64,000 nt of DNA. It comes from Candidatus Binatia bacterium (GTDB lineage Bacteria > Verrucomicrobiota > Verrucomicrobiia > Limisphaerales > UBA8199). Shown here piece by piece: positions 38,225-64,000 of this stretch. The stretch covers positions 1-64,000 of the forward strand of contig DATMQA010000088.1 in assembly GCA_035566895.1 (NCBI GenBank), read 5' to 3'. The translations under genes were made by a program, and so were the position numbers. Every line of letters starts with the position of its first letter. The stretch's first letter is position 1. The notes under the pieces were generated by a model that saw only the letters and a program-made list of their open reading frames with translations, was not told the DNA's origin and did not search any database.

Positions 38225-38347
38225 GCGCGAAGCGTTTGGAGTGCGTGCGCTCTGCGCCGCTTTGTTATGTTCGAGCTGAGTGGTTACATTTAGCTGCTCG
38301 AGAGTCCGAGAACGGCGCAGAGCGCACGCACTCCAAACGCTTCGCGC
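38225..38347. repeat. Perfect 35-bp inverted repeat (stem) with 53-nt loop, followed by T-rich tract
   Basis: Left arm GCGCGAAGCGTTTGGAGTGCGTGCGCTCTGCGCCG (38225-38259). Exact reverse complement at 38313-38347. Confidence 0.9.
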
Positions 38348-38425
38348 CTCTCGTTCAATGATTTTGCGCTTTTTTCTGTAACAATTGCCCCCTCTCCTGC
38401 GTATTACCTGCAGGGTCATCGTGTT

Positions 38426-39652: not shown

Positions 39653-39678
39653 GGCGGATGATGGATGGTGGATGATGG

Positions 39679-41112
39679 ATGATGAACACGGGCAATAACA
39701 TTGATTCCTCTGCACTCCCTCTCGATGCCGCGGCTGCACCTATCGACTCCTTGTCGCCCGCCATCGAGCCTCCATCATCCATCATCTACCATCCACCATC
39801 CTCCGCCGCTCTGCGGCGGCTCCGTCGCGCGTTGCTCTTCCCGGTAAAACTCTTTTGGGGAATGATCTTCTGCCAGGGATTGCTCGGAAGCATTTTCGTG
39901 GTCGGCTGGAGCTACCGCCTGGCGCAACGATTCGCCCTGAAATACTGGTGGTCGCACAGTTCACGCGCGCAGCCGAACACCACGTTCGCCGATTTTCTGG
40001 CCGGCAGCGAGCGGACCAGAGACCACCGCCACTGGCCTAATTGGTTCCTCCAGCAGGATTTCGCCGAGGCGCTCCGCCGGCAGCCTGGCGTGAGCGCGGG
40101 AAGGTATGTTTTTTCAGTGGTACGGGCGTTTACCCACGGCCTGTGGTTGAATTTCTGGATGGGGTTGCGCGCCATCGCCAATACCTGGGCGCTGACGCTA
40201 CCTGCCTGTATTTTCTGGTGGTTCGGCTGGTATGACGGCTGGAACAATTCGTTTAACAAAGGCTACGAGCAGGCCGCAGTGGGCCCGCTGGTTTCTTTGC
40301 TGGGCATCCTGTTGTTCATCGCGGCTATGTTTTATGTCCCGCTCGCCCAAGCCCGCCAGGCCGTCACCGGCGATTGGCGCGCGTTCTTTGAGTTCCGGCT
40401 GGTCTGGAATTTAGCGCGCTTGCGCTGGGTCTCGTGCGTGGGCTTGGCGCTGCTTTATTCTCTGCTGGCGCTTCCGCTCAATATCCTGAAAACCTCGCCC
40501 ATGTTCTGGATGCAAAAACATCCGGAGCTGGTTTATGTTTCCGACGCGCTGCTTCTCAAGATGCTCAACGACTATTTCTTTTGGTGCGCCCTGCTGATGT
40601 TGCCGGCCTATGTGCTGCTGCGTGTGCTCGCGGCCCGGGTTTATGCCTCAGCCATAATGGCCTCGGTCCAATCCGGCAATATTCAGCCCGCCGCGCTCGC
40701 CGTTTATGAACGCGAAACCCTCGACCGTCTGGGACTCCTGGAGACCCGCCCGTCTCGCGAACGCCACGTCTTCGTCCGCTTTCTGGCCTGGACCGGCACG
40801 CGGGTGGGACGCGTGCTCGGCGGCGCGGCGCTGTTCTTTACCTGGTTCGGCTTTGTTGCCCAGATTTACATCGCCGAGTTCTTCAATTACCACGGCGGCC
40901 TAGGCTGGCTGAACCAGCCGCTCGTCCAGCTCCCCTGGTTCCATTACTTGCCGTCGCGGTTGAAAACCCCGCTGGGAGAGGTTTTCTTCGTGCTCCTGGC
41001 CTGGTTCGTTGCCTTGCTGATCTGGTCGGTTTTAAGCACGATTGCCAGAAGCACGAGCAGGCAGGCCAGCACACCGCCGCCAACGAACAGCTTGAACCAG
41101 AGGTCGGTCTGA
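39679..41112 (+). CDS. Polytopic membrane protein of unknown function (low-complexity N-terminus; start uncertain)
   Basis: About 10 hydrophobic helices. The N-terminal 40 codons overlap an imperfect inverted repeat of GATGATGG motifs. Confidence 0.65.
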   Translation: MMNTGNNIDSSALPLDAAAAPIDSLSPAIEPPSSIIYHPPSSAALRRLRRALLFPVKLFWGMIFCQGLLGSIFVVGWSYRLAQRFALKYWWSHSSRAQPNTTFADFLAGSERTRDHRHWPNWFLQQDFAEALRRQPGVSAGRYVFSVVRAFTHGLWLNFWMGLRAIANTWALTLPACIFWWFGWYDGWNNSFNKGYEQAAVGPLVSLLGILLFIAAMFYVPLAQARQAVTGDWRAFFEFRLVWNLARLRWVSCVGLALLYSLLALPLNILKTSPMFWMQKHPELVYVSDALLLKMLNDYFFWCALLMLPAYVLLRVLAARVYASAIMASVQSGNIQPAALAVYERETLDRLGLLETRPSRERHVFVRFLAWTGTRVGRVLGGAALFFTWFGFVAQIYIAEFFNYHGGLGWLNQPLVQLPWFHYLPSRLKTPLGEVFFVLLAWFVALLIWSVLSTIARSTSRQASTPPPTNSLNQRSV

Positions 41113-42982: not shown

Positions 42983-43642
42983 ATGCGCGTGCTTGTGGTT
43001 GAAGACGAACCGGACCTGCTAGCCAGCCTATTGCGGGCCGTGCGCGAGGATGGTTATGCCGCCGATGGCGCGGCCGACGGCGAGGAGGGCCTGTACAAAG
43101 CCGAGAACTACGATTACGACGCCATCGTTCTGGACATCATGCTGCCGGGGCTCGATGGCTGGGAAGTCTTGCGCCGCTTGCGCAAAACCAAGAAAACCGC
43201 GGTGCTGATGCTGACCGCCCGCGATGCCGTGCGTGACCGGGTCCGGGGACTGGACACCGGTGCTGATGATTACGTGCTCAAGCCTTTCGACCTCGACGAG
43301 CTTCTGGCGCGGCTGCGCGCGCTCATCCGCCGCTCGGCCAACCAGCCTCAAGCCCGCCTGGAGATTGGCGATATCCTCATTGATACAGCCGGAAGGACGG
43401 TTTGCCGTCAGGGCGAGCCGGTTTCCCTGACCGCGCGAGAATACGCCCTGGTGGAATTCCTCGCCCTGCACCGTGGCAAAGTGGTCACCCGCACGACGCT
43501 CTACGAACACCTCTTCGATGAAAATGACTCGACGCTCTCCAACCTCCTCGACGTGCATGTCTCCAATATCCGCAAGAAACTCGGCCACGACTTTATCACC
43601 ACGCGGCGGGGACATGGCTACAGCATCGAGAAAACGCAATGA
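42983..43642 (+). CDS. OmpR-family two-component response regulator
   Basis: Receiver domain (VLVVEDEPDL...DAIVLDIMLPGLDGWEV...LMLTARD) plus winged-helix C-terminus (GHGYSIEK). Confidence 0.9.
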   Translation: MRVLVVEDEPDLLASLLRAVREDGYAADGAADGEEGLYKAENYDYDAIVLDIMLPGLDGWEVLRRLRKTKKTAVLMLTARDAVRDRVRGLDTGADDYVLKPFDLDELLARLRALIRRSANQPQARLEIGDILIDTAGRTVCRQGEPVSLTAREYALVEFLALHRGKVVTRTTLYEHLFDENDSTLSNLLDVHVSNIRKKLGHDFITTRRGHGYSIEKTQ

Positions 43643-47015: not shown

Positions 47016-47278
47016 TTTCTCAAACTAGCGGAAACGACAAGGCGGTGCAATGACCAGAATCGACACGATGGAATACCGTGTTAAAATTGCTCTAATCAAT
47101 ACTTAAAGATGCCAGAAAATTTGAGCCTCCTTGCGTCGGCTGCTACGATGGGAATGATTCCTTGCGCGCTCTTAGACCTGGGGCGTGCATGAGAACCGCG
47201 TGGATGATGCGTGAAACCACTCGAATAATTTCACGCATCACGCATCACTCATCACCACCCCATCACGCATCAGTACCG

Positions 47279-48430
47279 TCACTTGAGCCGCTCTTCCATC
47301 CACGCCAGCGTCTTGGCCCACATCTCGGGCGTATAAACGTGACCCAAACCAGGGTAAATGATGCTCTGAAAATCACTCTCCTTCCCATAGATCCCATAGA
47401 CCGGGCGCACTGCTGTTTCAATCGCGTGAATCCCATCCTCCGGCGAACCGTTGTCCTGGTCGCCAGTTTGGAACAACACCGGGCGGGGTGCCGCCAAGGC
47501 GACGACGGCTTCGGTATCGAAATGATTCAACAGGCCCGGTACGAAATAGTAGATGCCATGCGCCTTGAGCTCCTCGTGCTGAATCAGGTTCTGGTAGCGT
47601 GTCACGCAGGCAATAGCGACACCGGTCTTGAGCCGGTCGTCCAGCGCCATCAGCCACCAGGTGCGCGTCGCCCCCATGCTGATGCCGGTAACCCCGAGAC
47701 GGGTTGCATCCACTTCCGGGCGGGATGCCAGGTAATCCAGCCCCATCAAATCATCCCGCAAAATCATCCCCCACAGCGTGCGGCCGACCCACAAGTTAAA
47801 CTTGCTGGCGGTCAGCTCGCCGTTGCTCCCTTTCTCTTCCGGACCGCCGGGGCCTCGACCATTGCGCTCGCCGAAGCAATAGGCATCAATCCCCAACACC
47901 ACAAATCCGCGTTTGGCTAATGCGGGCCCGGGAGGTTCTGGCGTATGCCGTGCCTGGAACAATTCCTCTTTGCCAATCTCATACTCGCCGCCATGCCAGT
48001 GGCAATACAGGATCGCCGGCGCTTTTCCGGAAAGGTTTTCGGGCAACAGGAGATAGCCCGCCACCGTCGCACCCGCGCCGTTATCGAATTGGAATTTCTC
48101 GACCTTGCAGCCGTCCCGAGTTTCCCGGGAAAGGATCGCGATCTCAGGTAATTTGGGTCGCGGTGGAAGTTTGCCGAGCAACTGCCAAAGCTGCGCCCGC
48201 ACTTCTTTTCGCTGGCGTTCCCAGGCGCTTTTGGAACCGGGCGCCTTAAAATCTGGCGCCAGCGCGGAACTTGCGAGCCACCGGGCGGCGTCGCTTTGAT
48301 TGGTCTGAGCCATCGCGGCACTCAAAGTCAGGTTAACTGCCGCCCAGAGGGCTGCGAGGCTAAAGCGGAAGGTGCAAGGTCGAAGATGCAAGATGGTCCG
48401 AACGGATGTGTTCCATCTCCCATCTTCCAT
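47279..48430 (-). CDS. Secreted alpha/beta-hydrolase (acetyl-xylan-esterase / dienelactone-hydrolase-like)
   Basis: Start at ATG 48430 with signal-like segment. 'GISMGA' nucleophile elbow. 'LYCHWHGG' motif. Confidence 0.8.
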   Translation of the reverse strand: MEDGRWNTSVRTILHLRPCTFRFSLAALWAAVNLTLSAAMAQTNQSDAARWLASSALAPDFKAPGSKSAWERQRKEVRAQLWQLLGKLPPRPKLPEIAILSRETRDGCKVEKFQFDNGAGATVAGYLLLPENLSGKAPAILYCHWHGGEYEIGKEELFQARHTPEPPGPALAKRGFVVLGIDAYCFGERNGRGPGGPEEKGSNGELTASKFNLWVGRTLWGMILRDDLMGLDYLASRPEVDATRLGVTGISMGATRTWWLMALDDRLKTGVAIACVTRYQNLIQHEELKAHGIYYFVPGLLNHFDTEAVVALAAPRPVLFQTGDQDNGSPEDGIHAIETAVRPVYGIYGKESDFQSIIYPGLGHVYTPEMWAKTLAWMEERLK

Positions 48431-48440
48431 CTTCTTTCTC

Positions 48441-49022
48441 CTACTTGACGCCGCCTTTCTGGATTTCAGCAGAGATGGCCTTGACATCGTCCGCAATGGC
48501 GACTGCCTTAAGGCGGTTCAATCCGTTCTCCTGAAAGATCGCCTGCACATCCGCAAAGATGCCATCGAGTTTCGCCTGCGGATACTTGCCCGGATTAAGC
48601 ACCGCATCGAGTTCCTGCACCAAACGCGCGCGGCTTGTCGCCGGCAACGGCTTTTCAGCGAATGCAGCGCTGAGGTCGTCGGCCAGCTTGGCGGCGGCAG
48701 CCGGGGAAGGCTTCGCCCCCTGCGCGGCGGCGAGCAATTCATTCGCAAGCTGCTGCTTCTGCGCTTCGGTTGCCGGCGAACCAGTTCCAATAACGGCCAG
48801 GTCGGTCTGGAATTTCGTAAGCGCGGGCGAGAGCCTTGGCGGTGGTGGAGTCGTGGCTCCCGGAGTGGGAGTGCCGGGTTGCGTCGGCGGAGCCACACCC
48901 TGCCGCACGTTGTTTTGGTTGCTCAATTCCTTGGCCCGCTGCTTGATGATGGCGTCCTGGCCGGCAACCGGGCCGGCCGCCACCAGTACGACGGCGCCGA
49001 TGAATCCAAACGTTGCGTTCAT
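48441..49022 (-). CDS. Secreted hypothetical protein (Pro/Ala-rich linker; helical)
   Basis: Start at ATG 49022 (MNATFGFIGAVVLVAAGPVAG). Lies downstream of the Mla-like operon on the same strand. Confidence 0.6.
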   Translation of the reverse strand: MNATFGFIGAVVLVAAGPVAGQDAIIKQRAKELSNQNNVRQGVAPPTQPGTPTPGATTPPPPRLSPALTKFQTDLAVIGTGSPATEAQKQQLANELLAAAQGAKPSPAAAAKLADDLSAAFAEKPLPATSRARLVQELDAVLNPGKYPQAKLDGIFADVQAIFQENGLNRLKAVAIADDVKAISAEIQKGGVK

Positions 49023-49097
49023 AGGAGGGTGAATATTGTAGATTTGCTCTAAAAACAGACTGCACCGCGCGGTTTGCAATGTCAATGGCGCGCCTTG

Positions 49098-50375
49098 TTA
49101 CTCGCGCTTCTCCTTCGGCGAACGGAGCCGCTCCGATGGGGCCGCCGGCGGCGCGTTGGTTTTTTTGGTTTTAAACGCGGAGCGAAGCAGCCAGTGGTGT
49201 TTGAGCCCCTGCACGAATGTGTCGGCGTCAATGATAGTTTTGGAAATAGCGCTCAGGAGATTGGTGTTGGTTTCGACCTGTTGGTTCAGATTGCTGGTGA
49301 TGCCGGCTAGATTGTCGAGCGACCGGCTCAGATTCTCGACCAGCGCCGTGAGGTTGGTATTCGCATTTGTCAAAGTGATGCTGGCGTTGCCGAGGGTGGT
49401 CTCGAGTTGGCGGTTGAGGTTGGTGGGCAGCAGCCATTCGCCCAACGCGCCAGGATGGTCCAATTGGGCGGTAGCGGCCGCAAGGTTACTGACCGCGGGT
49501 CGAGCGTTGACCGCGACCACGTTGAGATTTGAGGTCAGCATGGTGCTGTTGGAAAGCAGGGTGGTCAATTGGTTGGTCAGATTGAGAATATTGGGCAGCG
49601 CGGCTTCCACCTGTCCGACTACCTTTTCCAGGCGTTCGGTCACCGCAGCGGATTCCTCGACCGGCAGCCAATAGGGTTTGGTGCTCTTTGTGTAGGGGTC
49701 GTAACGGGCTCGCTTCCGATGCCAAATGCCGGTGATTGAACTTCCGGTGACCCGGCTATCCAGGACGGAGATGTTGGAATAACCGGCAGCGGCGATCACG
49801 TCGAGATTTGTCAGGGGCGTCAGCGCTTTGACTACCAGGTTGGTTCGTGTCCGATCAAAAACATCCTGCGCGAGTTCCCATTTGGGCAGGTCGGCCAACA
49901 GCTTCGCCTCAGCGAGCGGGACGTTCGTCCGCAAGGGAAAAAAGACGTAGGCCGGGTAGCCGCCGGTGCCCTTCGTTACCTCCACGACCCGTTTGCCGAG
50001 GAAGTCCGCCGTTGCGACTTTCGCATGCGAGCCGTCGGTCCACATGTACTCGTAATTGGGCCATTTCAGTTCGAACTGGACGTAAACATTGTAGATGAAT
50101 TGTTCGGCCGGCATCGGTTTAATGTCCGTAATTCGGCCCGCTTCAAAACCCATCAGCATGACCGGATCGCCTACTTTGAGGCCAGTTGCCCGGTCGGTAA
50201 AAGTGAAATACGGGGCCTTGGTCAGGAACCATCCCTTGCGCTCTGCGGTGGTATAGACGTAGTAAAAAAAGCCGAACCCCAGCAGCCCCATGGCGACAAT
50301 AACGAACCAGCCGACGGCTCGTTCCATCCGGCTGAGGCGGGTGCGCAATTGCGGAGTTAAATCTTGCAGTGCCAT
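49098..50375 (-). CDS. MCE/MlaD-family substrate-binding protein with long C-terminal Asn/Leu-rich helical extension
   Basis: N-terminal TM helix. MCE domain (KGWFLTKAPYFTFTDRATGLKVGDPVMLMGFEAGRITDI). Confidence 0.8.
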   Translation of the reverse strand: MALQDLTPQLRTRLSRMERAVGWFVIVAMGLLGFGFFYYVYTTAERKGWFLTKAPYFTFTDRATGLKVGDPVMLMGFEAGRITDIKPMPAEQFIYNVYVQFELKWPNYEYMWTDGSHAKVATADFLGKRVVEVTKGTGGYPAYVFFPLRTNVPLAEAKLLADLPKWELAQDVFDRTRTNLVVKALTPLTNLDVIAAAGYSNISVLDSRVTGSSITGIWHRKRARYDPYTKSTKPYWLPVEESAAVTERLEKVVGQVEAALPNILNLTNQLTTLLSNSTMLTSNLNVVAVNARPAVSNLAAATAQLDHPGALGEWLLPTNLNRQLETTLGNASITLTNANTNLTALVENLSRSLDNLAGITSNLNQQVETNTNLLSAISKTIIDADTFVQGLKHHWLLRSAFKTKKTNAPPAAPSERLRSPKEKRE

Positions 50376-51169
50376 TATTCCATTTTTGTTTGCTCGACGG
50401 TCAACAACTCCTGGACCAATTCACCGCTGGCCGCCTCGAGTTGTTCCCAGTTGCCCAGCAGCGTCCAACGACGATCTTTTAACACCGCGAATTGATGCGC
50501 GCGGCCTTTCCAGGGCCGCAAATCGGCTGTCGTCAGCACCAGCGTGACCGGCCGCCCGCCCATCAAGCCGTGCCCCTTGGACAATTGTCCCAGGAACCCC
50601 AGCCACCATTGCATGTGCCGCAGGTCCAGCCCGCCTAGCGGATTATCCACCAGCAGCACCTCCGGCTTGAGCATCAGCGCGCGAGCCATGCCTACCCGCT
50701 TTTGCCAGTTTCGCCCCAGAGCGCCCGGGGTGCTGTCGGCCCAGGGCATCAGGTCCATCGCCTCGAGGACGGCCCGCACCTCAGGCTCAGCTTGGGCTTG
50801 CGTCAGGTTCCGGTGATAGCGCAACGGCAACGCAACATTCTCGCGAACCGTCAAATGATTAAACAACTGGCCTCCGTCGAATACCAGTCCCAACCGCAAG
50901 CGCACTTGCAGGCGCGCATCATCGAAAATCGGCATCTCCTCGCCAAAAAGCCGGTAGCGTCCACGCAGCGGCGGAATGACCCCGCCGGTCATCATCAGGA
51001 AGTCGCTCTTACCCGAGCCTTGCAATCCTCCGATCACCCAATAGGCCCCGGCCTGGACGGTCCAGTTGATGTCCTCCGCTACCACTGTCTCAGGATCCTG
51101 CATCGAGCTGACCGCCACCCGTTCCATTCTGATGACCGTGACCTCCGGTTTGGCGGCGGGCTGTTCCAT
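50375..51169 (-). CDS. ABC transporter ATP-binding protein (MlaF-like)
   Basis: Walker A 'GGLQGSGKS'. Signature/Walker B region (LLVDNPLGGLD). Confidence 0.85.
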   Translation of the reverse strand: MEQPAAKPEVTVIRMERVAVSSMQDPETVVAEDINWTVQAGAYWVIGGLQGSGKSDFLMMTGGVIPPLRGRYRLFGEEMPIFDDARLQVRLRLGLVFDGGQLFNHLTVRENVALPLRYHRNLTQAQAEPEVRAVLEAMDLMPWADSTPGALGRNWQKRVGMARALMLKPEVLLVDNPLGGLDLRHMQWWLGFLGQLSKGHGLMGGRPVTLVLTTADLRPWKGRAHQFAVLKDRRWTLLGNWEQLEAASGELVQELLTVEQTKME

Positions 51170-51172
51170 TCC

Positions 51173-52030
51173 CTAGGCCAGGTAGAGGATAATGAAGATC
51201 GCGTCGATCAAAACGCAAACGATGATGCTTTGTGCCACCGCGCGCACCGTCGCATAGGACACCTCCTCCAGGCGCAAGGGCTGTGCCAGCCCGTGATAGC
51301 ACGTCACAATGGCGACGATGAACCCGAACAAAAGGGTCTTGAGCGCCAGCAACGCAAAATCCAACCCGCTCAATGCCCCGGTGAGCTGATGGAAATAATC
51401 GGATGGCCGGAGCGGTACATCCTGCAGAAAGGCCCATAAGTAACCGCTAAAAACCGCTCCGAGGACCAAATACACCGTCAACGAGAAAACCCCGAGCGTC
51501 AGGCCCAGCACCCGTGGCATCACCATGTAATGAACCGGGTCGATGCCCAGCGCTTCCAGCGCCTCGACTTCCCCCATCGCCCGGGCTGTGCCTAATTCGA
51601 TCACGTTGGCGGTGCCGATGCGGGCCAGCACGAGCAACACCGCTAGCAGCGGACCTAGCTCGCGCACCACCACAATCACCATGATCGTCCCAAGATAATT
51701 AATCGCTCCTACGCGCGTCAGCCAGGAGACCGTCTGCCCGATGACCAGCAGGCCCAGCGCGGCCGCAATGAACAAAAACATCGGCAGCAACCGCAGCCCG
51801 GCGCGAGCAATCTCGTGATAAATCAACGGCCACACGACGTGCCGGGCCTCGCGAAATTTTCTCAGTATGACTCCCAGCGTAATCAGGGCAAACGCTCCCA
51901 ACCCGTGCAGCGTCAGCAGGAATCGAAAAAACTTCCGCGCCAGGTAATGCGCCAGAGATTGGGGCAGAGGCATGCGCAACAGCAAGCGAACTCGAGGTGA
52001 ATCCAAAGTGCTCGCATGGCCTTTTTGCAC
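51173..52030 (-). CDS. ABC transporter permease (MlaE-like)
   Basis: MlaE family pattern with five TM helices. Immediately upstream of the ATPase gene. Confidence 0.85.
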   Translation of the reverse strand: MQKGHASTLDSPRVRLLLRMPLPQSLAHYLARKFFRFLLTLHGLGAFALITLGVILRKFREARHVVWPLIYHEIARAGLRLLPMFLFIAAALGLLVIGQTVSWLTRVGAINYLGTIMVIVVVRELGPLLAVLLVLARIGTANVIELGTARAMGEVEALEALGIDPVHYMVMPRVLGLTLGVFSLTVYLVLGAVFSGYLWAFLQDVPLRPSDYFHQLTGALSGLDFALLALKTLLFGFIVAIVTCYHGLAQPLRLEEVSYATVRAVAQSIIVCVLIDAIFIILYLA

Positions 52031-52160
52031 TCGGGCAACATAATTTCCCTGGCATCACGGGTCAAGCTCACTGAGGCCCCATATCGGTTGCTGAAGTTAT
52101 GTCAATTTGCTTTTCCCGGTGCCAGGGCTCGCTGTAAAGTGGGCGTGCACGGAATTTGTG

Positions 52161-52694
52161 ATGAACAACGTTGTCTATTTCGACTTGGAAACCAAGAAGT
52201 CCGCCAAGGAAGTCGGCGGTTGGGACAAGATTAGTCGGATGGGCATGAGCGTAGGAGTCACCTACAGCACCGCCCGGGCCGGGTACCGAATTTACGGCGA
52301 GCCGGACGTGAATGAATTGCTCACGGAATTGCAGCGGGCGGATTTGGTCGTGGGCTTCAACAATCTGCGGTTCGATTATGAGGTGCTACACGGCTACACC
52401 GCTTATGACCTGCGCCAGTTGCCCACCCTGGACATGCTGATTGAGTTGCAAAACAAACTGCAACACCGGCTTTCACTTGATTCGATTGCCACCGCAACTT
52501 TCGGTGTCGAAAAGACCGCCGAGGGGATGCAGGCCATCCAGTGGTTCAAGGAAGGCCGCTTGCTCGAGATTGCCGAATACTGCTGCTACGATGTAAAAAT
52601 CACCCGCCTGGTTCACGAATACGGCGCACAGAACCGCCAACTGCATTACCACAATCGGTTCGGGAAAAAACTTAGCGTGCCCGTGAGCTGGTAA
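52161..52694 (+). CDS. RNase H-like fold 3'-5' exonuclease domain protein (YprB-like)
   Basis: Start at ATG 52161. 'VVYFDLETKK' (Exo I), 'VVGFNNLRFDYEVL' (Exo II), 'YCCYDVKITRLV' (Exo III). Confidence 0.75.
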   Translation: MNNVVYFDLETKKSAKEVGGWDKISRMGMSVGVTYSTARAGYRIYGEPDVNELLTELQRADLVVGFNNLRFDYEVLHGYTAYDLRQLPTLDMLIELQNKLQHRLSLDSIATATFGVEKTAEGMQAIQWFKEGRLLEIAEYCCYDVKITRLVHEYGAQNRQLHYHNRFGKKLSVPVSW

Positions 52695-52711
52695 GTTCAG
52701 GGAGGGCTTCG

Positions 52712-54184
52712 CTAGGAACCTCGTTTCGCGCCGGGGTCCATTTTCACGGCCTCCGGAGACGCGCCTCCTTTGAACGACAAGGCCACGGCGGCTTTGGTTA
52801 GATCCCCGCCGTCAATTTTGATGCCCCCGCTGCCGGCTCCTTCCACTTGCAGGAAGACCGCCGCCCCCGCAAGCACTCGCGCGCCGGTCAACAGCACGTC
52901 GCGCGCGTCGATGAAACGCAGCAGCGACTCGGCCTCCGGATGTCCTTGCGCGCTCAACCCGTTGATGGCGGCATCACTGACGTGGTCCAACACTACCGCG
53001 GGCCGCAAATCCGGATTGGCCATCTCGAAGCGCACGTTCTGCAGCGTTAGGCCGTGCACGTTGCGCGCGAACAGGGCGTAAGCGGGCGGCACGCCGATGG
53101 CGTAATACTCCCCGGCAATTTTCGGCACGTCCCTCACGGCGCCCTGCTCGGTTGTGCCGCCGCCGGGGAAGGTGACATGTGACATTGTTCATCACCAGAT
53201 CCGAGAAGGAAATGTTCTCGAACCGTGAGCGGGACCGCACCGCATTTTGATCGGGCAACCATAGGTTCCATAGATGAGGCAATTCGAGACGGTAATGTTC
53301 TCGGCCTCGCCCCCGCCGAAACGGAAGACCGACCAGCGCGTCGTGAACGAGCAATTGGTTACCGTGACAAACTTGCAACTGCCGAACAGCGCGCACGCGT
53401 CGTCCTGGCACTCCACATCGCAATTGCTGACATGGACGTATTGGCTGCTGATGAAATGAAACCCGTCGTTGTTGTGGTTGACCCGGTTGTGAATGTGGAT
53501 GCCTTCCAGCTTCACATATTTGCTTTGGATAATCCGGACCGAGTGAAACGCGCTCTCCGTCAGAAAAATGTCACGCACGGTGAGGTTCTGGCATTGATGG
53601 AACAGCAGGTGATACGGACGGTGGCTGCCCCCGATGCCGGCGGGAGGTGGCGCACCGCGGGCAGGGCTGCGAAATTGCGCGCCCTGGCCGTCAATTGTTC
53701 CAGGCCCCTCGATGACGACATTCTGGAGGCCGACACCGAAGATCAAACCGACGTTCAAACCGACGTTCCCGTCCTCCAGCGTCGAGTCTCCGTGAAGCGG
53801 GATGGCCTCGGCCGCATGGTACTGGTTCCCATCAGCGCTGCCCAACAGCTTGCCCTGCGCCGCAAGGTGCAGTTTGATATTGCTCTTCATCTCGATCGTG
53901 CCGATGACAAACACGCCGGCGGGCACAAGAACCGTCCCGCCCTGGTCCTGGTGGCAGGCATCAATCGCGGCCTGAACGGCGGCTGTGTCCAGCGAGCAAA
54001 TCTGGAACAGGACGTGCGAGAGGCTTATCGTCTGGGGGCCAATTCCTACTTCACCAAGCCCAGTGCCTTGAACGACCTGATGGACATGCTCCGCGTTACG
54101 TATGAATACTGGTCGCGGTGCGAGTGTCCTCCCGTGCCATGCTGTTGAGCTGCCGAAAAAACCTTCGGCGTCGTCCGGGATCAC
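52712..54184 (-). pseudogene. Glycoside hydrolase family 28 (polygalacturonase-like), frameshifted near 53186-53192 and lacking a signal peptide
   Basis: N-part ORF 53192..54184 has GH28 motifs 'QDQGGTVLVPAGVF', 'NNDGFHFISS', 'CQDDACALFGS'. The C-terminal continuation is in another frame (52712..53185). The first ~65 codons are antisense to a receiver-gene fragment. Confidence 0.65.
53990..54148 (+). pseudogene. C-terminal fragment of a response-regulator receiver gene ('...EQDVREAYRLGANSYFTKPSALNDLMDMLRVTYEYWSRCECPPVPCC*')
   Basis: Matches the C-terminus of the intact receiver at 60483..61022 (ISRAYKLGANSYVTKPSSF...FW). No receiver N-terminus upstream. Confidence 0.5.
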
Positions 54185-54486
54185 TTTTCATTCGCCGATA
54201 GGATCAACACGATATATGCCGTGCGTGTCAGCATTTATCCTGCGGCGGTTGCTCCTTGGCGACAAGACAAATCCTTTTCAACCCTCGCCTCGCCCTCGCA
54301 TAACACAGACCCAGCGCATGATCTAGGTGGAAAAACTCACCGGCAAGCTTTCGGCTGCGGAAATGGCACGCAATGACTCCCAAGGCCGGGAGCAGCGGGC
54401 GGAGTTAACAGTGCAATAGTGAAAAAAGAAGCCATAGGCAGCACCGTTGCCTACGGCCTGGGGTTGTGCGTTCCAGCCGGTTGATA

Positions 54487-55032
54487 CTACTTGCCGCAGC
54501 CGGTGGGGTGGATTTGGAGATTGCCACTGCTGATGGCCACCGGGTCAATATCGCTCGGATTGGCCGGGTCGGTGCTGATGAGCTGCAGCGTTGCGCCGGT
54601 GGTGCAGTCAACGACATTGAGGTAAAGGCGATCTTTGCCAGCACCGGGCTCGCCGTGGTCCTCCGCATGGCCGATAAAGCAGACGGGCCGGGGGGCCGAG
54701 GGGTTGCCGTCGCTGCCGGAGAGTGTTCCGGTGCCGTCGAAATCGATGGTATTAACCTTGACCCTGGGGGCTTTGTCGGGCGAGCCGCTGCACCCGATGA
54801 CAGTGATCTGCTGGCCTTTGAAATGCAGGTGATGCACGTGGTCAACCGCGTGCCAGTTACCACCCCCTGCGGCGGTGGGACTGCAGCCCGGATTGACCAC
54901 GCCCCCGAAGCTGAAGTCTGGCATGCCTTTGGTCTTGCCAATGGTTCCGCCCCCTGTGAGCCAGCACCCCCCTTGAGCGGGAGGCGATGTGCAGAAGGCA
55001 CCACTCAGGGTGAATGCGCCGAAAACGGGCAT
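54487..55032 (-). CDS. Secreted hypothetical protein (Cys/His-containing; signal peptide MPVFGAFTLSGAFCTSPPAQG)
   Basis: Very strong C-ending GC3 bias; preferred over the overlapping + strand ORF 54466..55095. Confidence 0.7.
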   Translation of the reverse strand: MPVFGAFTLSGAFCTSPPAQGGCWLTGGGTIGKTKGMPDFSFGGVVNPGCSPTAAGGGNWHAVDHVHHLHFKGQQITVIGCSGSPDKAPRVKVNTIDFDGTGTLSGSDGNPSAPRPVCFIGHAEDHGEPGAGKDRLYLNVVDCTTGATLQLISTDPANPSDIDPVAISSGNLQIHPTGCGK

Positions 55033-55102
55033 TCTCCTTGGCAGGGGGGTTTACCCCATACCGAAAATCCGCTCTCTGCCCCATGGTTAAGATAGTCGCC
55101 GT

Positions 55103-55175
55103 ATGCCCGATCAGGCACTGTTACTGGTCGTCGAGGACTCTGAGAACGATGCGCTTTTGCTTCGCCGCGCCTGCC
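55103..55175 (+). pseudogene. N-terminal fragment of a response-regulator receiver gene ('MPDQALLLVVEDSENDALLLRRA', then no receiver homology)
   Basis: Matches beta1-alpha1 of the receiver 60483..61022 (QALLLLVEDSEDDVALLRCA). The ORF continues as low-complexity sequence. Confidence 0.45.
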
Positions 55176-55554
55176 TCAGGGCCAGAGCCGCTGGTCGATT
55201 CGATGCCCGGTTCGCTCGATTCTGCGTCGAAAAGTCGCTTAGAGCGTGTCTTAAAATTGGGGCCGCGTTGTTCTGCCCGGAAAACCGCTCAACTTTCCGC
55301 CTCCTCACGTCGGCGGCTACAATTTCCAAACACGCTCTTAAACACGCTTTGCGCTTCAAAAAACACGCTCTCTCGCTCTCGTGACGTTCGTGCGCGTGAG
55401 ACTTGATAGCTTTATGATAGACTTTCGCGCATCTTTTCAGAACAGAACAAGAGCGACTAACAGAGCATAACGGCGCACTACGCAAAAAGATCGCAATGCG
55501 AGCATAGCTCAGTAAATACGAGTGAAAAACGCTCTTCTCTCAGCAGTTTTGGAG

Positions 55555-55640
55555 TGGTGGTAGGTGATGGATTCGAACCATCGAAGGCGTGAGCCAGCAG
55601 ATTTACAGTCTGCCCCCGTTGGCCACTTGGGTAACCTACC
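55555..55640 (-). tRNA. tRNA-Tyr (anticodon GTA), type II long variable arm
   Basis: Reverse complement GGTAGGTTACCCAAGTGGCCAACGGGGGCAGACTGTAAATCTGCTGGCTCACGCCTTCGATGGTTCGAATCCATCACCTACCACCA. Anticodon loop CTGTAAA. T-loop TTCGAAT. Confidence 0.9.
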
Positions 55641-55995
55641 GCCGGGTAGTGGATAGTTGCCAGTGGATAGTGAGCAGCCGGAGTTCTCCAGCCTGACGCG
55701 ACCATCAAAGACAACCAGCGCGAGCGGTGAATTTAGCCGAAGCGGTGGGCTTGTCAATGCGGGGGTATCACACTAAACTAGCGGTCAGTCGTGGACGAGG
55801 CGCATGGCGGCTCTCATTGGCACCCCACTTTAGTGGGGTGTCAGAGCCGGGCTGGCCAAGGGAACCGTTTCAACGGTTTCTCGCGGCGCCGCTAAACCGT
55901 TGAAACGGTTTCGCTGACCTCCGCCGATGCGATACACCCCGCTGAAGCGGGGTGTTAATGAGAGTGGGACGGTGAGTCCAGGCCAGGTCTTTTTT

Positions 55996-57336
55996 ATGTT
56001 CGATTCGTTAAGCGGCAAGCTGCAGAACGCCTTTCGCAACCTGCGGGGGCTGGGGAAGATCTCCGAGGGCAACGTCGGGGAGGCGTTGCGCGAAGTGCGC
56101 CTGGCGTTGCTGGAGGCGGACGTCAATTTCAAGGTGGCGCGGGATTTCATCGAACGGGTCAAAAGCAAGTCGCTCGGGCAGGAGGTCGTCCAGAGCATTC
56201 AACCGGGGCAACAGATCGTCAAAATCATCCATGATGAGCTGGTGGATTTGCTGGGGTCGGCCAACGCCGGCTTGCAGTTGAGCGGCAACCCGAGCTGCGT
56301 GCTGATGGTGGGGCTGCATGGGTCGGGCAAGACGACGTCGAGCGGCAAGCTGGGGCGGTTGCTGTTGAAGCAGGGGCGCACGCCGCTGCTGGTGGCGGCG
56401 GACGTGTATCGGCCGGCGGCCATGGACCAGCTCGAAACTCTCGGCAAGCAGGTTGATTTGCCGGTATATGTCCATCGCGGCGCAACCGACGTGCTCAAGA
56501 TTGCGCGCGAGGCGCTTGAGTTTGCGCGGGCGAACAATCGCAACACGCTGATTTTCGACACGGCGGGCCGGCTGCAGATCGATGAACCGCTGGTGCAGGA
56601 GCTGGTGCGCCTGCGCGACCTGATCAAACCGCAGGAAACGCTGCTGGTGCTGGACGCGGCGACGGGCCAGGAAGCGGTGAATGTGGCGACGCATTTTGAC
56701 CAGGCGCTAAACATCACGGGCTCGATTTTGACCAGGCTCGATGGCGACGCGCGCGGCGGGGCGGCGCTGAGCATGAAGGCGGTGACGGGCAAGCCGATCA
56801 AGTTTGCCGGCATCGGCGAAAAGCTGGAGGATTTCGAGCCGTTTCATCCGGAGCGGATGGCGTCGCGCATTCTGGGGATGGGCGACGTGGTGAGCCTGGT
56901 GGAGAAGGCGGCCGAGGCGGTGGACCTGGACGAGGCGAAGCGGCTGGAAGAGAAGATGCGCAAGGGGCAGTTTTCGCTGGAGGATTTCCTGGACCAATTG
57001 CGCCAGATGAAAAAGCTGGGGTCGTTGGAATCAATTGTGGGGATGCTGCCAGGCGGGGCCGAGGTGATCAAAAACAACGACTTGAACAAGCAGGAGAAGG
57101 AATTCCGCCACATGGAGGCGATGATTTGCGGGATGACGTTTCAGGAGCGAAAGAATCCGCACATGCTGAACGCAAAGCGGCGCCAGCGGATTGCCAAGGG
57201 CAGCGGGGTGACGGTGACGGAGCTGAACACGATGCTCAACAAATTTGCCCAGATGCAGCAGATGATGAAGAAGATGGGCAAGTTCCAGAAGATGATGGCC
57301 AAGATGGGGGGCGGGGCGGCGGGGCTGCTGAGGTAA
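55996..57336 (+). CDS. ffh: Signal recognition particle protein Ffh
   Basis: N-domain and G-domain ('GLHGSGKTTSSGKLG', 'DTAGRLQIDE') plus Met-rich M-domain ('MLNKFAQMQQMMKKMGKFQKMMAKMGG'). Confidence 0.95.
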   Translation: MFDSLSGKLQNAFRNLRGLGKISEGNVGEALREVRLALLEADVNFKVARDFIERVKSKSLGQEVVQSIQPGQQIVKIIHDELVDLLGSANAGLQLSGNPSCVLMVGLHGSGKTTSSGKLGRLLLKQGRTPLLVAADVYRPAAMDQLETLGKQVDLPVYVHRGATDVLKIAREALEFARANNRNTLIFDTAGRLQIDEPLVQELVRLRDLIKPQETLLVLDAATGQEAVNVATHFDQALNITGSILTRLDGDARGGAALSMKAVTGKPIKFAGIGEKLEDFEPFHPERMASRILGMGDVVSLVEKAAEAVDLDEAKRLEEKMRKGQFSLEDFLDQLRQMKKLGSLESIVGMLPGGAEVIKNNDLNKQEKEFRHMEAMICGMTFQERKNPHMLNAKRRQRIAKGSGVTVTELNTMLNKFAQMQQMMKKMGKFQKMMAKMGGGAAGLLR

Positions 57337-57348
57337 GAAGAGTTCTGA

Positions 57349-58224
57349 CTACACCTTTCGCTCGGCAAGGACAGCGACGCCGAGCGGAGCCAACGCGACC
57401 TCCGTTACTCGTTCTTGCCCGGTAACCAGCTCGTTCATGGGATGGGGGAGCGGAACATCGTGCTGGGTCTCAGTCAGATTCAGGAGGAAGTAATAAATCG
57501 CGTCGGCCGTTTCGCGGGTAGTGACTTCGACGCCCCTCGGTGCATCGAGGAGCGGAACCAGCCGGCCGGCCGCAGCAGCCTCGCGCGCCAGGGTTTCGTA
57601 AAATCCAACGTCAGCCGAATCCGTTCCCGCATAAAAGACGAAGCCGCGTTCGTGCCGATGGCGAGTCACGGCAGGGTTTCCGGCCATGCTGCCGCCGCGA
57701 AAGGTCGCGATGGGTTCTGCGCCGTCGAGGCGGAGGCCCTCCAACATGGTTCGCGGCGCGAAAACAGTCTCGCTGCCGGAGAAGACGATGCCTAAAGCGG
57801 CATTGAGTTTGGGATCGAGCATCCCCGCGGCCAGGTTTTCCTCCTTGGAAAGCTCGGAGACCGCGGTTACGCCGGCCATGGCAGCGAAAGGACCCGGTGG
57901 AAGCACCCGGCGCATGCTGTTGTCCGGGTTTTGCGTGCCGGCGTGGAAATTCAGGACCAGGATGCCGCCAGCGGCCACATAGGCCCGCAGCCGGGACACA
58001 GTCGCATCATCGACGAGGCGCAAATTGGGCGCAAAGATCAGTTTGTAAGCGGAGAGCGGGGCGGTGGGGGGCACTACATCGACGTTGCGCTGCAGGACTC
58101 TGATCCCGCGATAATTGCGCTCTCCGTCGGCATCGTAATTTCGGCCGCTGCCCCAAAAGCCTTGCGACCATTCATTGGCATAATCATCTGGCGGAAATCG
58201 CTCTCCCATTGCGCTTCGTCCCAC
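57349..58224 (-). CDS. Beta-galactosidase (GH42-type) trimerisation-like domain protein; probably a remnant. The TAT-signal/'YYPE' N-terminal piece is in a different frame at 58224..58436
   Basis: 'AGGILVLNFHAGTQ' GATase1-like trimerisation-domain pattern. The upstream ORF 58224..58436 'MEITRRDFLKLSSLASVGLSLPLVA...WDHYFLGSSYYPE' ends in a stop overlapping this start. No TIM-barrel catalytic domain between them. Confidence 0.55.
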   Translation of the reverse strand: MGRSAMGERFPPDDYANEWSQGFWGSGRNYDADGERNYRGIRVLQRNVDVVPPTAPLSAYKLIFAPNLRLVDDATVSRLRAYVAAGGILVLNFHAGTQNPDNSMRRVLPPGPFAAMAGVTAVSELSKEENLAAGMLDPKLNAALGIVFSGSETVFAPRTMLEGLRLDGAEPIATFRGGSMAGNPAVTRHRHERGFVFYAGTDSADVGFYETLAREAAAAGRLVPLLDAPRGVEVTTRETADAIYYFLLNLTETQHDVPLPHPMNELVTGQERVTEVALAPLGVAVLAERKV

Positions 58225-58471
58225 TATTCGGGGTAATAGGAGGAGCCAAGAAAATAATGGTCCCAGGCGCGGGTGGGGTGATTGGTGCCAGGGGCAGCCG
58301 GCACGGTCCGGCAGGCGACCAGCGGGAGAGAGAGACCGACGGAGGCCAGGCTGCTCAGTTTAAGAAAATCACGGCGGGTAATTTCCATAGGTGGACTCAC
58401 TCGCAAGGCATAAACGAAACCGAACGGATGGCGCAAGCCGTTATCCGATTAATCATTCAGCAACGCTCGCC

Positions 58472-60482: not shown

Positions 60483-61022
60483 CTAACTCTCGGGGTGCGC
60501 TTTGGCGAGCGCATCCTCTGCCTGGCGGGGAGCCGGCGCGGGGCGGGATGCCTCGGGAGCCTGGCTCAACCGCAACCAAAAGTCGCTGATGGCCTGGCTG
60601 ACTTCGGCTAACCGAGCGAAGGAGCTGGGTTTGGTGACGTAGGAATTGGCCCCGAGTTTATAGGCACGGCTAATGTCCTCGGCCGCGCCCGAAGCGGTGA
60701 GCACGACGACGCGCAAGCTCTTAAAGGTGGGCTGGGAGCGAATCCATTGGAGCACCTCGAACCCATCCATCATCCCAGGCATTCTGAGGTCGAGGAGCAC
60801 CAGGGCGGGGAGGGGAAACTCGGCGCGGTTGGCGTAGGGGCCGAACCCACTAAGGTAGGCGACGGCTTCTCCGCCGCTTCTGACCACCTGAAGAGGGTTG
60901 GTGATATTAGCCTGGTCGAAGGCACAGCGAAGCAGGGCCACGTCATCCTCGGAGTCCTCGACAAGGAGAAGGAGAGCTTGAGCGCGCATATCGGCGTGAA
61001 ATGATTCGGCAAGATGCGTCAC
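60483..61022 (-). CDS. Single-domain response regulator (receiver only)
   Basis: 'LLLVEDSEDD', 'LVLLDLRMPGMMDGFEVL', 'VVVLTAS', 'KLGANSYVTKP'. Confidence 0.85.
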   Translation of the reverse strand: MTHLAESFHADMRAQALLLLVEDSEDDVALLRCAFDQANITNPLQVVRSGGEAVAYLSGFGPYANRAEFPLPALVLLDLRMPGMMDGFEVLQWIRSQPTFKSLRVVVLTASGAAEDISRAYKLGANSYVTKPSSFARLAEVSQAISDFWLRLSQAPEASRPAPAPRQAEDALAKAHPES

Positions 61023-61082
61023 GCAGGAGGTTGGGGCTATGGGGTGTCCGCCCCAGCGCCGCGCGCTTGGGGGCGGCGGAAG

Positions 61083-61232
61083 GCTTAAAAAGGTTAAAAG
61101 GGTTAAAAAGGTTACAAGGTTACAAGAGTTAAAAGAGTTAGAAGGGTTAAACGGGTTAAGAAGGTCAAAGAGGTTACGAGGGTTACAAAGTTACAAGGTT
61201 ACGAGGGTTACAAAGTTACAAGGTTACAAGGG
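61083..61232. repeat. Long tandem array (about 17 units) of 9-bp GGTTA(A/C)AAG-type repeats (same unit family as the 30038/31166/31993 elements)
   Basis: aggcttaaaaaggttaaaagggttaaaaaggttacaaggttacaagagttaaaagagttagaagggttaaacgggttaagaaggtcaaagaggttacgagggttacaaagttacaaggttacgagggttacaaagttacaaggttacaagggtt. Confidence 0.85.
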
Positions 61233-61376
61233 TTCCCTTGGGAAGGGGGAGTCACCAATCGGTCCTTCACCCCATTGAGCAAACCACCCCAAGCGCTCCA
61301 TGTTAGGTTCGGGGGGGCGAGCCTCTGGTTCGTCCCGGCGCGCCAAAAGCCGGAATTAATTACAGTGGACTGGAGG

Positions 61377-61679
61377 TCAGGCCGCTTCGCGGACCATGTC
61401 CATGCTGCCGAATGGATTGGGGACGCGCACGGTGCATTCAGGGTCGTCGAACCATTCACCATCCACGATGAAGCGGTAGGTGTGTTTGCCTGGGCGCAGT
61501 TGGATCGAGGTTGTCCAAATGCCGTCCTTGTCCTTGCGCATCAGGATGCTGTGCTTGCGCCATTCGGTAAAGTCGCCAGCCAGGAGAACGCTGATGGCGT
61601 TGGGAGCAAAAAAGCGAAAAGTTTGGTTCCGGGAAGTTGAGGTTGGTTTGGTCATAAGCATGAAATTTTTCTCGAACAT
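61377..61679 (-). CDS. Glycogen-binding (CBM48 / AMPK-beta GBD-like) domain protein
   Basis: 'FRFFAPNAISVLLAGDFTEW...GIWTTSIQLRPGKHTYRFIVDGEWFDDP'. Confidence 0.7.
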   Translation of the reverse strand: MFEKNFMLMTKPTSTSRNQTFRFFAPNAISVLLAGDFTEWRKHSILMRKDKDGIWTTSIQLRPGKHTYRFIVDGEWFDDPECTVRVPNPFGSMDMVREAA

Positions 61680-61751
61680 CGCCTAGGGCATTTTTGGAGT
61701 CAACGGTAGGCATATACCCCAGGACAATTCCTCGGGAGTTTTGGCTATTTC

Positions 61752-61950
61752 AAGCAGCCCGGCATGGGCGGACACGCGCACCGCGACCAGTATTCATAAG
61801 TGCCGCGCAGGATCTCCATCAGGTCGTTCAACGCAGTGGGCTTGGTGAAGTAGGAATTGGCGCCCAGGCGATAAGCCTCGCACACATCTCTTTCCAGGTT
61901 TAGGATCGTCCTCAATCAGGAGCATGCTCAACCGTCCCAACTTCATCACC
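61752..61950 (-). pseudogene. Internally deleted response-regulator receiver remnant (beta1 'MLLIEDDPKPGKR' joined by a frameshift to alpha5 '...EAYRLGANSYFTKPTALNDLMEILRGTYEYWSRCACPPMPGCLK*')
   Basis: Both ends match the receiver family at 60483..61022 and the fragment at 53990..54148. The middle ~90 residues are absent. Confidence 0.5.
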
Positions 61951-62145
61951 CAATATACCACCAATTTCTGACGGGGCACGCTGGTGCTTGTTCTCCCGAC
62001 GGCTGCACTACAAGGCGGGCGGATGTCGGCACGGTCCTGGTGCCATTGCCCCGGCTCGTGGGTGGCTAGTGGCGCAATCGCATCCGAACGTCCTGTTCGG
62101 GATCGTATGAATTGACCTGACGGGGAGGGGGGGCATAATGGTTCC

Positions 62146-63990
62146 ATGTCCCTGCTAAGAAGCGCCGAGGCATGGCTGCCGCGCCTGCGGCGATTGATTT
62201 GTGCGTTTGCGGTTGCGGGCGCCGCGGTGTTTGGCGGGGGTTTTCCGTTTCGAGCAGAGGGGGTGGAGTATCTCATTGATGTTTGGGACACGGAGAAAGG
62301 TTTGCCCAACAGCTCGGTAACGGCGATCGCCCAAACGCCCGATGGTTATCTATGGGTGGGAACGTATAACGGGCTGGCGCGATTCGACGGGGTGCGATTT
62401 ACCACTTTCAACGCGCCCGAGTTAGGGCACGCGCGGACGCAGGACCTTTTCGTCGACAACAATGGGACGCTATGGATCAACACCTACCGCGGCGGGCTGA
62501 CGTCGTATCGCAACGGGGTGTTTCGGCGCGAATGGCCTGAACGGGGCGAGTTCGACAGCCACACGATATTGGCGGCCTCGTCCTCAAACGAGGTGGTGTT
62601 TGTTACGCAGGCGGGCGAGGTGCTGCGCCGGCAGGGCGCGGCGGCGGACAGGAACGCGGCCTGGAGCAGGGTGACGCCGCCGGGGGGAGCGCGCCTGCTT
62701 TACGGTTGCGCGGATGGCCAGGGGACGCTGTGGTTCATGACGCGCGAGGGCCGGCTGATGAAAGAGACCGGCGGGGAGTTCAAGGAAGTGGCGGAGTCGT
62801 GCGGCCTGGCGGGAAGGGTGCTGGCACTGGCGGCCGATGCGAAGGGAAAAGTCTGGACGGGCACCGACCGCGAGGTGGCGGTGTGGGAAGGCGGTGAGTT
62901 CCGGCCTTTGAACGACACGAACAGCGAGCCGGCCCTGGATGCACAATTTGTATTGCCGACTCGCGACGGGGGTTTGTGGGTGCTGGCGGACGGGCGCTTG
63001 CGCAAACGGATGGGCCGGCAATGGGCCGGGGAAGCAAAGGAGTGGCGGGGGTTGCTGGGGCGAGCTTCGGGCCGGGCGATGGGGATGCACGAGGATCGGG
63101 AAGGCGGGGTTTGGTTCAACCATTACGGCAACGGCCTGTTCCATGTGACCCCCGACGGGCAGTTTCAGCGGTTCACGACCGATGAAGGATTGCCGGGGGA
63201 CCGGGTGTGGGCGTGGTTCGAGGATGCCGAAGGGAACCTGTGGGTAGGGGTCGAGCGAGGCGGGTTGGTGCGGCTGCGCGAGAAGCGGTTTCAGGTGATC
63301 GGGCCGGGGGAGGGACTGCCGGCGCGAGCGGCGCAATCGGTTTGCGAGGATGAAAGCGGAGCGATGTGGTTCGGGACGGCAGGAGGGGGTTTGTGCCGCT
63401 GGAAAAGCGGGGGCCTGGAGAGCTTTCCCGTCGGCACGGATGCTTCGGGCAATTTTGTGTTCTCAGTTTTTCCGTCGCGAGCCCAGGGGTTGTGGTTGAG
63501 CGCAGCGGCGGGTGAGGACCTGTTCATTTTCAAGGGGGGACAAGTTCGGCGAGCGCCCTGGCAGGTTCATGGCATCAAAGCCATCCTGGAAGATCGAGGC
63601 GGGCGCGTGTGGATGGGAACCAAAAGCGGCCTGAGCTGGTACACGCCGGAGCGGCGGGGGAGCTTCGGCGCGCGGGACGGCCTGACGGTCTCGGCGGTGC
63701 GCGCGCTGGCCGAGGGCGCGAACGGCAGCATTTGGTGCGGCAATGATGAGGGCAGTTTGTATCGATGCCAGGCGGAGCGGTTGACGGCGTTTCGTCCGGC
63801 AGATGCGCTGGCGGACCAGCCGATTTGGTCGTTGCTGGCGGATGCCGAGGGGACGGTCTGGGCGGGAACCTTCCAGGGAGGATTGCTGCGGTTCAAAGAG
63901 GGGAGCTTCAAGCGGGTGACGACGGAGCAAGGACTGCCCAGCGATGTTATCTGCGAGATCCTGGAGGACGGGAAGGGCCAGCTCTGGCTC
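62146..63990 (+). CDS. Two-component-regulator propeller (Y_Y_Y-type ligand-binding sensor) domain protein, probably a hybrid sensor kinase; 3' end runs off the window
   Basis: ATG 62146. Signal/TM 'LICAFAVAGAAVFGG'. Repeated 'GLPxxxVxxIxQDxxGxLWIGTxxGL' blades to the end of the window. The frame is open through 63990. Not in the ORF track because it has no stop. Confidence 0.8.
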
Positions 63991-64000
63991 GGGACTTATC

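Follow-up and report, generated by a model that had tools for sequence, protein, structure and literature searches.

Truncated response-regulator genes flanking tRNA-Tyr and ffh in a soil metagenome contig as probable remnants of ordinary deletions

In the 64,000-nucleotide stretch of contig DATMQA010000088.1 (assembly GCA_035566895.1) that was analysed here at its full length, and that is called the window below, three partial genes for Rcp1-type single-domain response regulators (fragments A, B, and C) lie within a patch of about 9 kb around tRNA-Tyr and ffh. Based on the homologies of these fragments, the positions of their junctions, the lesions of neighbouring genes, and the pattern of substitutions, the fragments are probably (at roughly 0.8) pseudogene remnants left by ordinary deletions, forming a local cluster that flanks tRNA-Tyr and ffh. 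A sequence-only reading of the same DNA had singled out the three receiver-gene remnants and had attributed them to recombination between short conserved boxes of a multi-copy gene family or to cassette shuffling. The remnants themselves were borne out by tblastn searches, an inverted repeat, the alignment of a leader, and the comparison of a gene head. Ordinary decay is preferred to a cassette system because unrelated neighbours, encoding GH28, GH42, and secreted proteins, bear like lesions.

The fragments can be compared with an intact regulator gene in the same patch. Its open reading frame (ORF) is open from a GTG at 61022, and the ATG at 60989 is the likely start because of leader homology with fragment B. 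The product matches structures of the Protein Data Bank (PDB) end to end at E values of 1e-21 to 1e-28 (5te9 at 1.4e-28; also 1k68 and 1i3c), and by this similarity it is assigned to the phytochrome-type (Rcp1-like) single-domain response regulators; no phytochrome gene was seen near it. Only the intact gene has the complete (βα)5 receiver fold of about 120 residues with the phospho-acceptor Asp ending β3.

Fragment A and the tail of fragment C form an inverted repeat of 147 nucleotides (nt), detected with a repeat finder at 53998–54144 and 61755–61901 (85% complementary). In a local alignment with wide flanks, the similarity starts at 53998 and 61901 and falls to background at the stop codons. 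Nucleotide alignment of the receiver-like segments had been named as the check on their relatedness; within the window, it gives 85% DNA identity between A and C, which are not unrelated motifs. Read in the sense frame, the tails of A and C are NLEQDVREAYRLGANSYFTKPSALNDLMDMLRVTYEYWSRCECPPVPCC and NLERDVCEAYRLGANSYFTKPTALNDLMEILRGTYEYWSRCACPPMPGCLK, respectively, each running to a stop codon. In tblastn searches, residues ~100–156 of the intact regulator and of five full-length relatives match both tails at 40–60% amino acid identity. Tail A aligns to Rcp1 residues 103–141, and fragment A has a weak Pfam Response_reg match at profile positions 82–110 of 111. The tails, which had been described as only α5, are instead α4-β5-α5. 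The motifs GANSYFTKP and YEYWSRC occur in both and align to Rcp1 and the 6xvu regulator; both tails carry the marks of the family, namely the β5 Lys in a KP motif and the C-terminal aromatic-Trp extension. Because residues 1 to ~100 are absent, A is regarded as a pseudogene remnant. With six full-length regulators as tblastn queries, no middle segments were found at A, B, or C, and the rest of the window contained no further piece of such a regulator besides B; the OmpR-type regulator at 42983–43642 is unrelated. The spacer at 54149–54486 and the 230 nt after B (55173–55402) gave no other match among the sequences compared.

All three fragments belong to the family of the intact receiver, as had been stated, but the match to that gene is loose for A and C, at only ~40% protein identity, against ~70% for B. 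Relatives of the tails were sought in 185,579 species genomes, JGI metagenome contigs, and a library of 1.8 billion proteins, and none above 66% identity was found; the best values were 57% in genome contigs and 66% in metagenome contigs. An exhaustive search of representative proteins returned full-length genes at no more than 63% identity to the tail, and a word-indexed protein search with the tail returned fragment C itself as the sole match. PGAP annotates a protein of 56 amino acids at C (VN578_10145), for which an exact-sequence look-up gave no record. A and C are each other's closest known relatives.

Fragment C retains both ends of a gene. Upstream of its tail, on the same strand, the DNA reads ATG AAG ... 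ATG CTC CTG ATT GAG GAC GAT CCT AAA, corresponding to MKLGRLSMLLIEDDPK, which is similar to the head TILIAEDDPND found in full-length relatives (MLLIEDDP against ILIAEDDPND). The frame of this head is offset by one base from that of the tail, which begins at 61900, and about 83 codons or more (codons ~17–99) have been deleted between the two. The description of C as a β1 segment fused to the tail by a frameshift stands for the head and the offset and fails for the extent of the tail, which is more than α5. Judged with the heads of relatives, at most 2–4 nt of microhomology (CCTAA/AAAC) is possible at the junction, which on this evidence would be no conserved box. Recombination between conserved boxes is disfavoured by this junction and by the like truncation of the GH28, GH42, and secreted-protein genes. 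From the layout of the locus, the intact CBM48 gene downstream of C probably depends on a promoter kept with the C head. The histidine kinase gene starting at 62146 (+) has its own NarL-type regulator downstream; because it is already paired in this way, fragment C is taken to be an extra gene. Between the intact regulator and CBM48 lies the longest (61079–61234) of several arrays between genes in which a degenerate 9-nt unit (AAAGGTTAA / GGTTACAAG) recurs in up to ~17 copies, the others being at 31992–32047, 30040–30078, and 31165–31206.

Fragment B is the opposite end of a regulator gene. Its coding part (55103–55171) contains LLLVVEDSEND, an N-terminal β1 with the acidic pair, and is identical to the N-terminus of the intact regulator at 16 of 23 residues and 69.6% of nucleotides. 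The similarity extends ~60 nt upstream of the ATG (55041–55172 against 61057–60920), with a local alignment score of 66 against 26.4 ± 4.0 for shuffled sequences, and because of this extension B is described as a leader plus 23 codons. Homology stops at 55172, and residues 24 to the end are absent. The stretch that separates B from the conserved 3′ flank of tRNA-Tyr contains AAACACGCT three times, at intervals, within 55300–55365 (+).

The three losses are thus of different kinds, and the claim that the same middle segment was lost repeatedly does not hold: only C has an internal loss, whereas A has a 5′ loss shared with GH28, and B has a 3′ loss. A multi-copy family had been supposed as well, and relatives indeed commonly occur two or three to an array. 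In other genomes, ~80 family genes were found in 53 loci, all but one of full length; because the relatives are nearly all full length, the fragments are considered a local peculiarity, not a habit of the family. The exception is a tail-only remnant beside metG on an unrelated soil contig (L063, 3001–3168), which begins 4–6 codons before the A/C boundary. Short database matches were entertained as tail-only proteins and rejected, three of the four that were checked being genes of full length broken by a frameshift or a nonsense codon: L062 (924–1373) has a TAA nonsense codon at the LTS/S position, and L026 (1–242) and L027 (1–294), both on short contigs, may be sequencing errors. L063 is the only true remnant.

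Table 1. Regulator fragments and other features of the patch (positions in the window)
Feature	Position	Strand	Description
Fragment A	53999..54148	+	3′ remnant (α4-β5-α5, 49 codons + stop) of an Rcp1-type single-domain response-regulator gene; 5′ edge adjoins truncated GH28
Fragment B	55041..55172	+	~60 nt 5′ leader + first 23 codons (β1, start of α1) of a paralogue of the intact regulator
Fragment C head	61901..61946	-	Start codon, β1, acidic EDD motif (MKLGRLSMLLIEDDPK); one-base frame offset to tail
Fragment C tail	61745..61900	-	3′ remnant of a paralogous regulator, 51 codons + stop; 85% nt and 82% amino acid identity to A
Intact regulator	60483..60989	-	Rcp1/RcpA-type single-domain response regulator; Pfam Response_reg 6.8e-18, profile positions 2–108 of 111
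CBM48 gene, intact	61377..61679	-	~65 nt past the C stop, same strand as C
GH28 pseudogene	52712..53995	-	Polygalacturonase-like; ~55–60 N-terminal residues gone at the A junction; frame broken near 53190–53260
Secreted-protein gene, 5′-truncated	54487..55017	-	~277-residue family; signal peptide and CarboxypepD_reg-like N-domain (~95 residues) gone
tRNA-Tyr	55555..55640	-	With ffh (55996–57336, +), the sole block conserved with the nearest relatives
GH42 pseudogene	57349..58436	-	β-galactosidase; TAT signal + first catalytic residues, TAG at 58226–58224, jump near 58182

The genes beside the fragments are broken in the same manner (Table 1). In the 330-residue ORF at 53192–54184 (-), Pfam recognizes GH28 only from residue ~64–66, residue 66 corresponding to residue 60 of 5olp, and the first ~63 residues are the antisense of tail A. 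The C-terminal part of GH28 carries on in other frames (ORFs 52974–53423 and 52712–53185). At the A junction, the match to GH28 runs out at ~53995 and that to the tail starts at 53998–53999; because the two genes are divergent and their homologies abut within ~3 nt, one deletion would explain both truncations. In the 181-residue ORF at 54487–55032 (-), homology to the secreted family begins at FTLSG near 55014, and the gene keeps its terminator at 54429–54459. This family is widespread (359 matches), combines a signal peptide, a CarboxypepD_reg-like domain, and a Cys-rich domain, and has paralogues in unrelated contexts. Besides its TAT signal, the GH42 gene retains YYPE, a stop codon, and WDEAQWESDFRQM, and then jumps to residue ~423 of enzymes of 670–700 residues, which corresponds to residue ~15 of the ORF; ~390 codons with the whole catalytic domain are deleted, and Pfam finds the trimerisation and C-terminal domains kept. 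Between 52.7 and 62.1 kb, the only whole genes are ffh, tRNA-Tyr, a sulfite/nitrite reductase gene, the intact regulator, and CBM48, occupying ~43% of the DNA by our count. The remaining window is tiled by long ORFs, and when ten of these were compared with Pfam, six matched and none had a truncated domain.

The substitutions between A and C suggest that their divergence took place in working genes. Of 141 aligned positions, 21 differ, 14 of them at third codon positions. The synonymous divergence (dS) is 0.54 and the non-synonymous divergence (dN) is 0.083 (dN/dS 0.15; Fisher P = 2e-4), and neutral simulation of 21 random changes predicts 14.2 ± 1.8 amino acid changes against the 8 observed (P = 0.001). 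None of the five other reading frames shows a purifying signal; stop codons interrupt three of them. The divergence looks purifying and may predate inactivation; because the differences are mostly synonymous and the homology does not go past the stop codon, A and C would have diverged as the ends of two working paralogues that were truncated later. In the frame of the antisense peptide that had been noticed in two ORFs, the non-synonymous/synonymous ratio is 1.44, and on this ground the shared peptide would not be under selection. The duplicated antisense ORFs had been put down to the receiver tails beneath them, and this account holds: they share the peptide as a by-product of the tails.

In the course of events that we propose, the stretch would once have borne at least four paralogous Rcp1-type regulator genes among GH28, secreted-protein, GH42, and other genes. 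Selection on the stretch may then have relaxed, and spontaneous deletions could have taken parts of genes. A single deletion may have run from inside GH28 through the divergent promoter region to the β4/α4 boundary of regulator A, and the 5′ third of the secreted-protein gene could have been lost by one or more deletions. One deletion each may have taken regulator B from codon 24 onward, the ~390 codons of GH42, and codons ~17–99 of regulator C, the last shifting the frame by one base. The internal deletion of C would have been tolerated with the promoter and the downstream CBM48 gene left intact. We infer the number and order of these deletions and that promoter use by CBM48 is the reason why the C head and tail survive. 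Decaying pseudogenes within intergenic spacers are a described phenomenon (PMC3164680).

Other explanations were weighed against these data. In a cassette or shufflon system, inversion or gene conversion would exchange silent inverted C-terminal cassettes at the end of an expressed regulator and so vary the α4-β5-α5 dimer face, which is a functional surface of receiver domains; the two promoterless tails are indeed inverted and 7.6 kb apart. However, Pfam-annotated gene tables for 10 kb on each side contain no recombinase, integrase, or transposase, and tblastn finds only the two tails in the window, with no regulator middle segments or alternative cassettes. No expressed full-length gene with the constant part is present, the intact regulator being ~40% identical there, and the substitutions are mainly synonymous and purifying, not diversifying. 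The longest exact block shared by A and C is 25 nt, and inversion would flip ffh and tRNA-Tyr, swapping only the 3′ ends of two dead fragments. Furthermore, contigs of the Logan collection pass both repeats unbranched. The cassette system is extremely unlikely and for practical purposes refuted. A diversity-generating retroelement was also rejected, as the A/C mismatches are spread across all base pairs and not confined to adenine, and the same gene tables contain no reverse transcriptase. Structured RNA was likewise rejected as an explanation, since Rfam searches of 53900–55700 and 61000–62200 found only the tRNA at gathering or E ≤ 1 thresholds. An integrative element could have displaced the 3′ ends of a regulator by entering the gene within its 3′ portion and supplying a copy of that end itself, as e14 does in icd of E. 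coli. It would suit the abrupt 5′ boundary, the homology to the stop codon, the mostly synonymous differences, and the adjacent tRNA-Tyr, whose 3′ side has a defence island in one relative; unlike in e14/icd, the copies are inverted instead of direct, neither completes or joins a whole gene, and the gene tables show no integrase within 10 kb, so that we give this idea next to no weight. Assembly error deserves attention in a metagenome-assembled genome with a multi-copy regulator family, in which an assembler might have jumped between paralogous genes to give a chimeric contig. Nevertheless, two Logan contigs from run SRR7101595, made with a different assembler, are 100% identical to the window at 47118–55268 and 61198–64000 and cross the junctions at 53996 (A), ~55020–55041 (secreted protein), and 61900 (C). 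The same genes are called in series on a 144-kb JGI contig (3300050821), among them GH28 pieces of 330 and 157 residues and a GH42 piece of 286 residues. Because these two further assemblies, from the same strain, repeat the junctions, they are not the artefact of one assembler. Chimerism is highly improbable because the junctions lie outside shared k-mers, as at A, where the GH28 and tail homologies abut; moreover, the GH42 and GH28 lesions lie away from repeats. One Logan contig ends at 55268, within the 230-nt stretch after B, and one terminates within the longest 9-nt array.

Some observations weigh against decay by ordinary deletions. Both tails open at the same codon (AAY CTG GAA, NLE) just past β4, 0–5 nt apart, and the coincidence of two independent random breakpoints is estimated at ~3% (an 11-nt window in ~360 nt); this shared start could, with low probability, come from a hotspot or retained function. 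Both tail frames are still open, although 57% of neutral simulations give a stop, so that the tails either were cut late compared with the A/C divergence or remain under constraint. In addition, the three assemblies may share one sample, and no syntenic close relative was present in the searched collections, so we infer the ancestral gene order. The shared boundary could reflect a deletion hotspot or site-directed breakage at the β4/α4 boundary, by a cryptic recombination site, secondary structure, or a former insertion-element target, yielding recurrent NLE tails. The 5′ boundaries of A and C agree to within one codon, the L063 remnant starts nearby, and the L062 nonsense codon falls at the LTS/S position. 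Against this, only two cases coincide, with the chance given above; L063 has its boundary at a different codon and was found with the tail as query (ascertainment bias); L026, L027, and L062 carry point lesions, not deletions; and no mobile element, recombinase, or conserved motif was found at the junctions. Conservation in the repeat is lowest over the first 25 nt past the boundary, which also led to the rejection of gene conversion passing a deletion between A and C. A hotspot is accordingly held to be improbable. The tails could also still function as micro-proteins of ~43–56 residues, for example as decoys for the α4-β5-α5 dimer interface, with selection keeping the frames open. The low dN/dS, the open frames, an in-frame GTG at the same position in both (D-V), and the PGAP call at C agree with this notion. 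The selection signal is explained equally well by divergence before truncation, however, and the start codons differ, C having TTG at 61915 and A only the internal GTG with poor Shine–Dalgarno spacing. For A, which is antisense to a dead GH28 gene and within it, no promoter match lies upstream, the lone sigma-70-like match being in the tail, and the short matches in the protein library proved to be broken full-length genes. Micro-protein function is thus very unlikely. Equally a long shot is the combination of a recurrent β4/α4 breakpoint with tails kept by selection as, for example, dimer-interface decoy peptides, although it would account for the same start codon, the open frames, and the synonymous bias together. 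Remnants of ordinary deletions are therefore the preferred reading.

The sequence comes from a soil metagenome-assembled genome with locus tags VN578_ and the NCBI label "Candidatus Binatia bacterium". The nearest relatives of its Ffh (92–93% amino acid identity; for the nearest, 93% and, in nucleotides, 82%) have mixed labels, of which the meaningful ones are Limisphaerales/Verrucomicrobiae, and Pedosphaera and metagenome-assembled genomes of Verrucomicrobiia are among the sources of the sequences closest to the regulator tails. Because these relatives point to Verrucomicrobia-like groups, the NCBI label probably arose by an error in binning or taxonomy. The flanks of the Ffh relatives are unrelated, and one relative (L021) has an MmeI/defence island 3′ of tRNA-Tyr; for these reasons, both flanks of tRNA-Tyr/ffh are regarded as variable ground. 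The ancestral order was not recovered from synteny: Ffh relatives share only tRNA-Tyr and ffh, and the secreted-protein homologues P0006 and P0013 lie in unrelated contexts.

Elsewhere in the window, a c-di-AMP riboswitch of the ydaO/yuaA type (57 bits) is found at 25903–26071 (+), upstream of the ORF at 26155–28026. A unit of 98–100 nt occurs three times (85–92% identical) at 21802–22000 and 23158–23257, and a segment of ~200 nt is duplicated 1477 nt apart (21998–22208 and 23475–23685). Inverted repeats of 30–43 nt are present at 22016–22058 and 23492–23571, and Pfam gives no match for the flanked ORFs. Two tandem YceI-domain paralogues account for a direct repeat of 300 nt (86%) at 32171–32470 and 32992–33291. 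At 38222–38350 and 39653–39804, a 55-nt inverted repeat with a 19-nt spacer is 84% complementary, and (GGATGAT)n heptamer arrays stand opposite their own complement 88 nt off.

The importance of these results lies mainly in annotation, the shared breakpoint being of wider interest only if it recurs genome-wide. Marking as pseudogenes is warranted for the 56-residue "hypothetical protein" at C, the 145/181-residue call at 54487–55032, and the 330-residue GH28 ORF that appears in three assemblies. The patch is a neat example, in an uncultured soil verrucomicrobium, of genes decaying locally by deletion around a core, tRNA-Tyr and ffh, that has been conserved.

Among known systems, the intact gene is alike over its full length to Rcp1 of Synechocystis and RcpA/RcpB of Calothrix (1i3c, 1k68, 1k66, 5te9), and the LGANSY.TKP β5 of this family, with its conserved Lys, and its C-terminal YW...P extension are present in tails A and C. 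Unlike Rcp1, RcpA, and RcpB, fragments A, B, and C have neither the phospho-acceptor Asp nor the greater part of the fold. With the R64 pilV/Rci shufflon and the phase-variable hsdS genes, the patch has partial 3′ gene copies in inverted orientation in common, and it differs from them in having no recombinase, constant expressed gene, crossover repeats, or diversifying pattern. Compared with pseudogenes eroded under the deletional bias of bacterial genomes and with pseudogene relics in intergenic spacers (e.g., PMC3164680), the decay was observed in a single ~9-kb patch, in a soil genome that is Verrucomicrobia-like and apparently free-living, and not genome-wide, and two remnants share a breakpoint. 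As in such pseudogenes, the patch shows partial homology, nonsense, frameshift, and deletion lesions in several adjacent genes, and remnants lying in spacer-like DNA.

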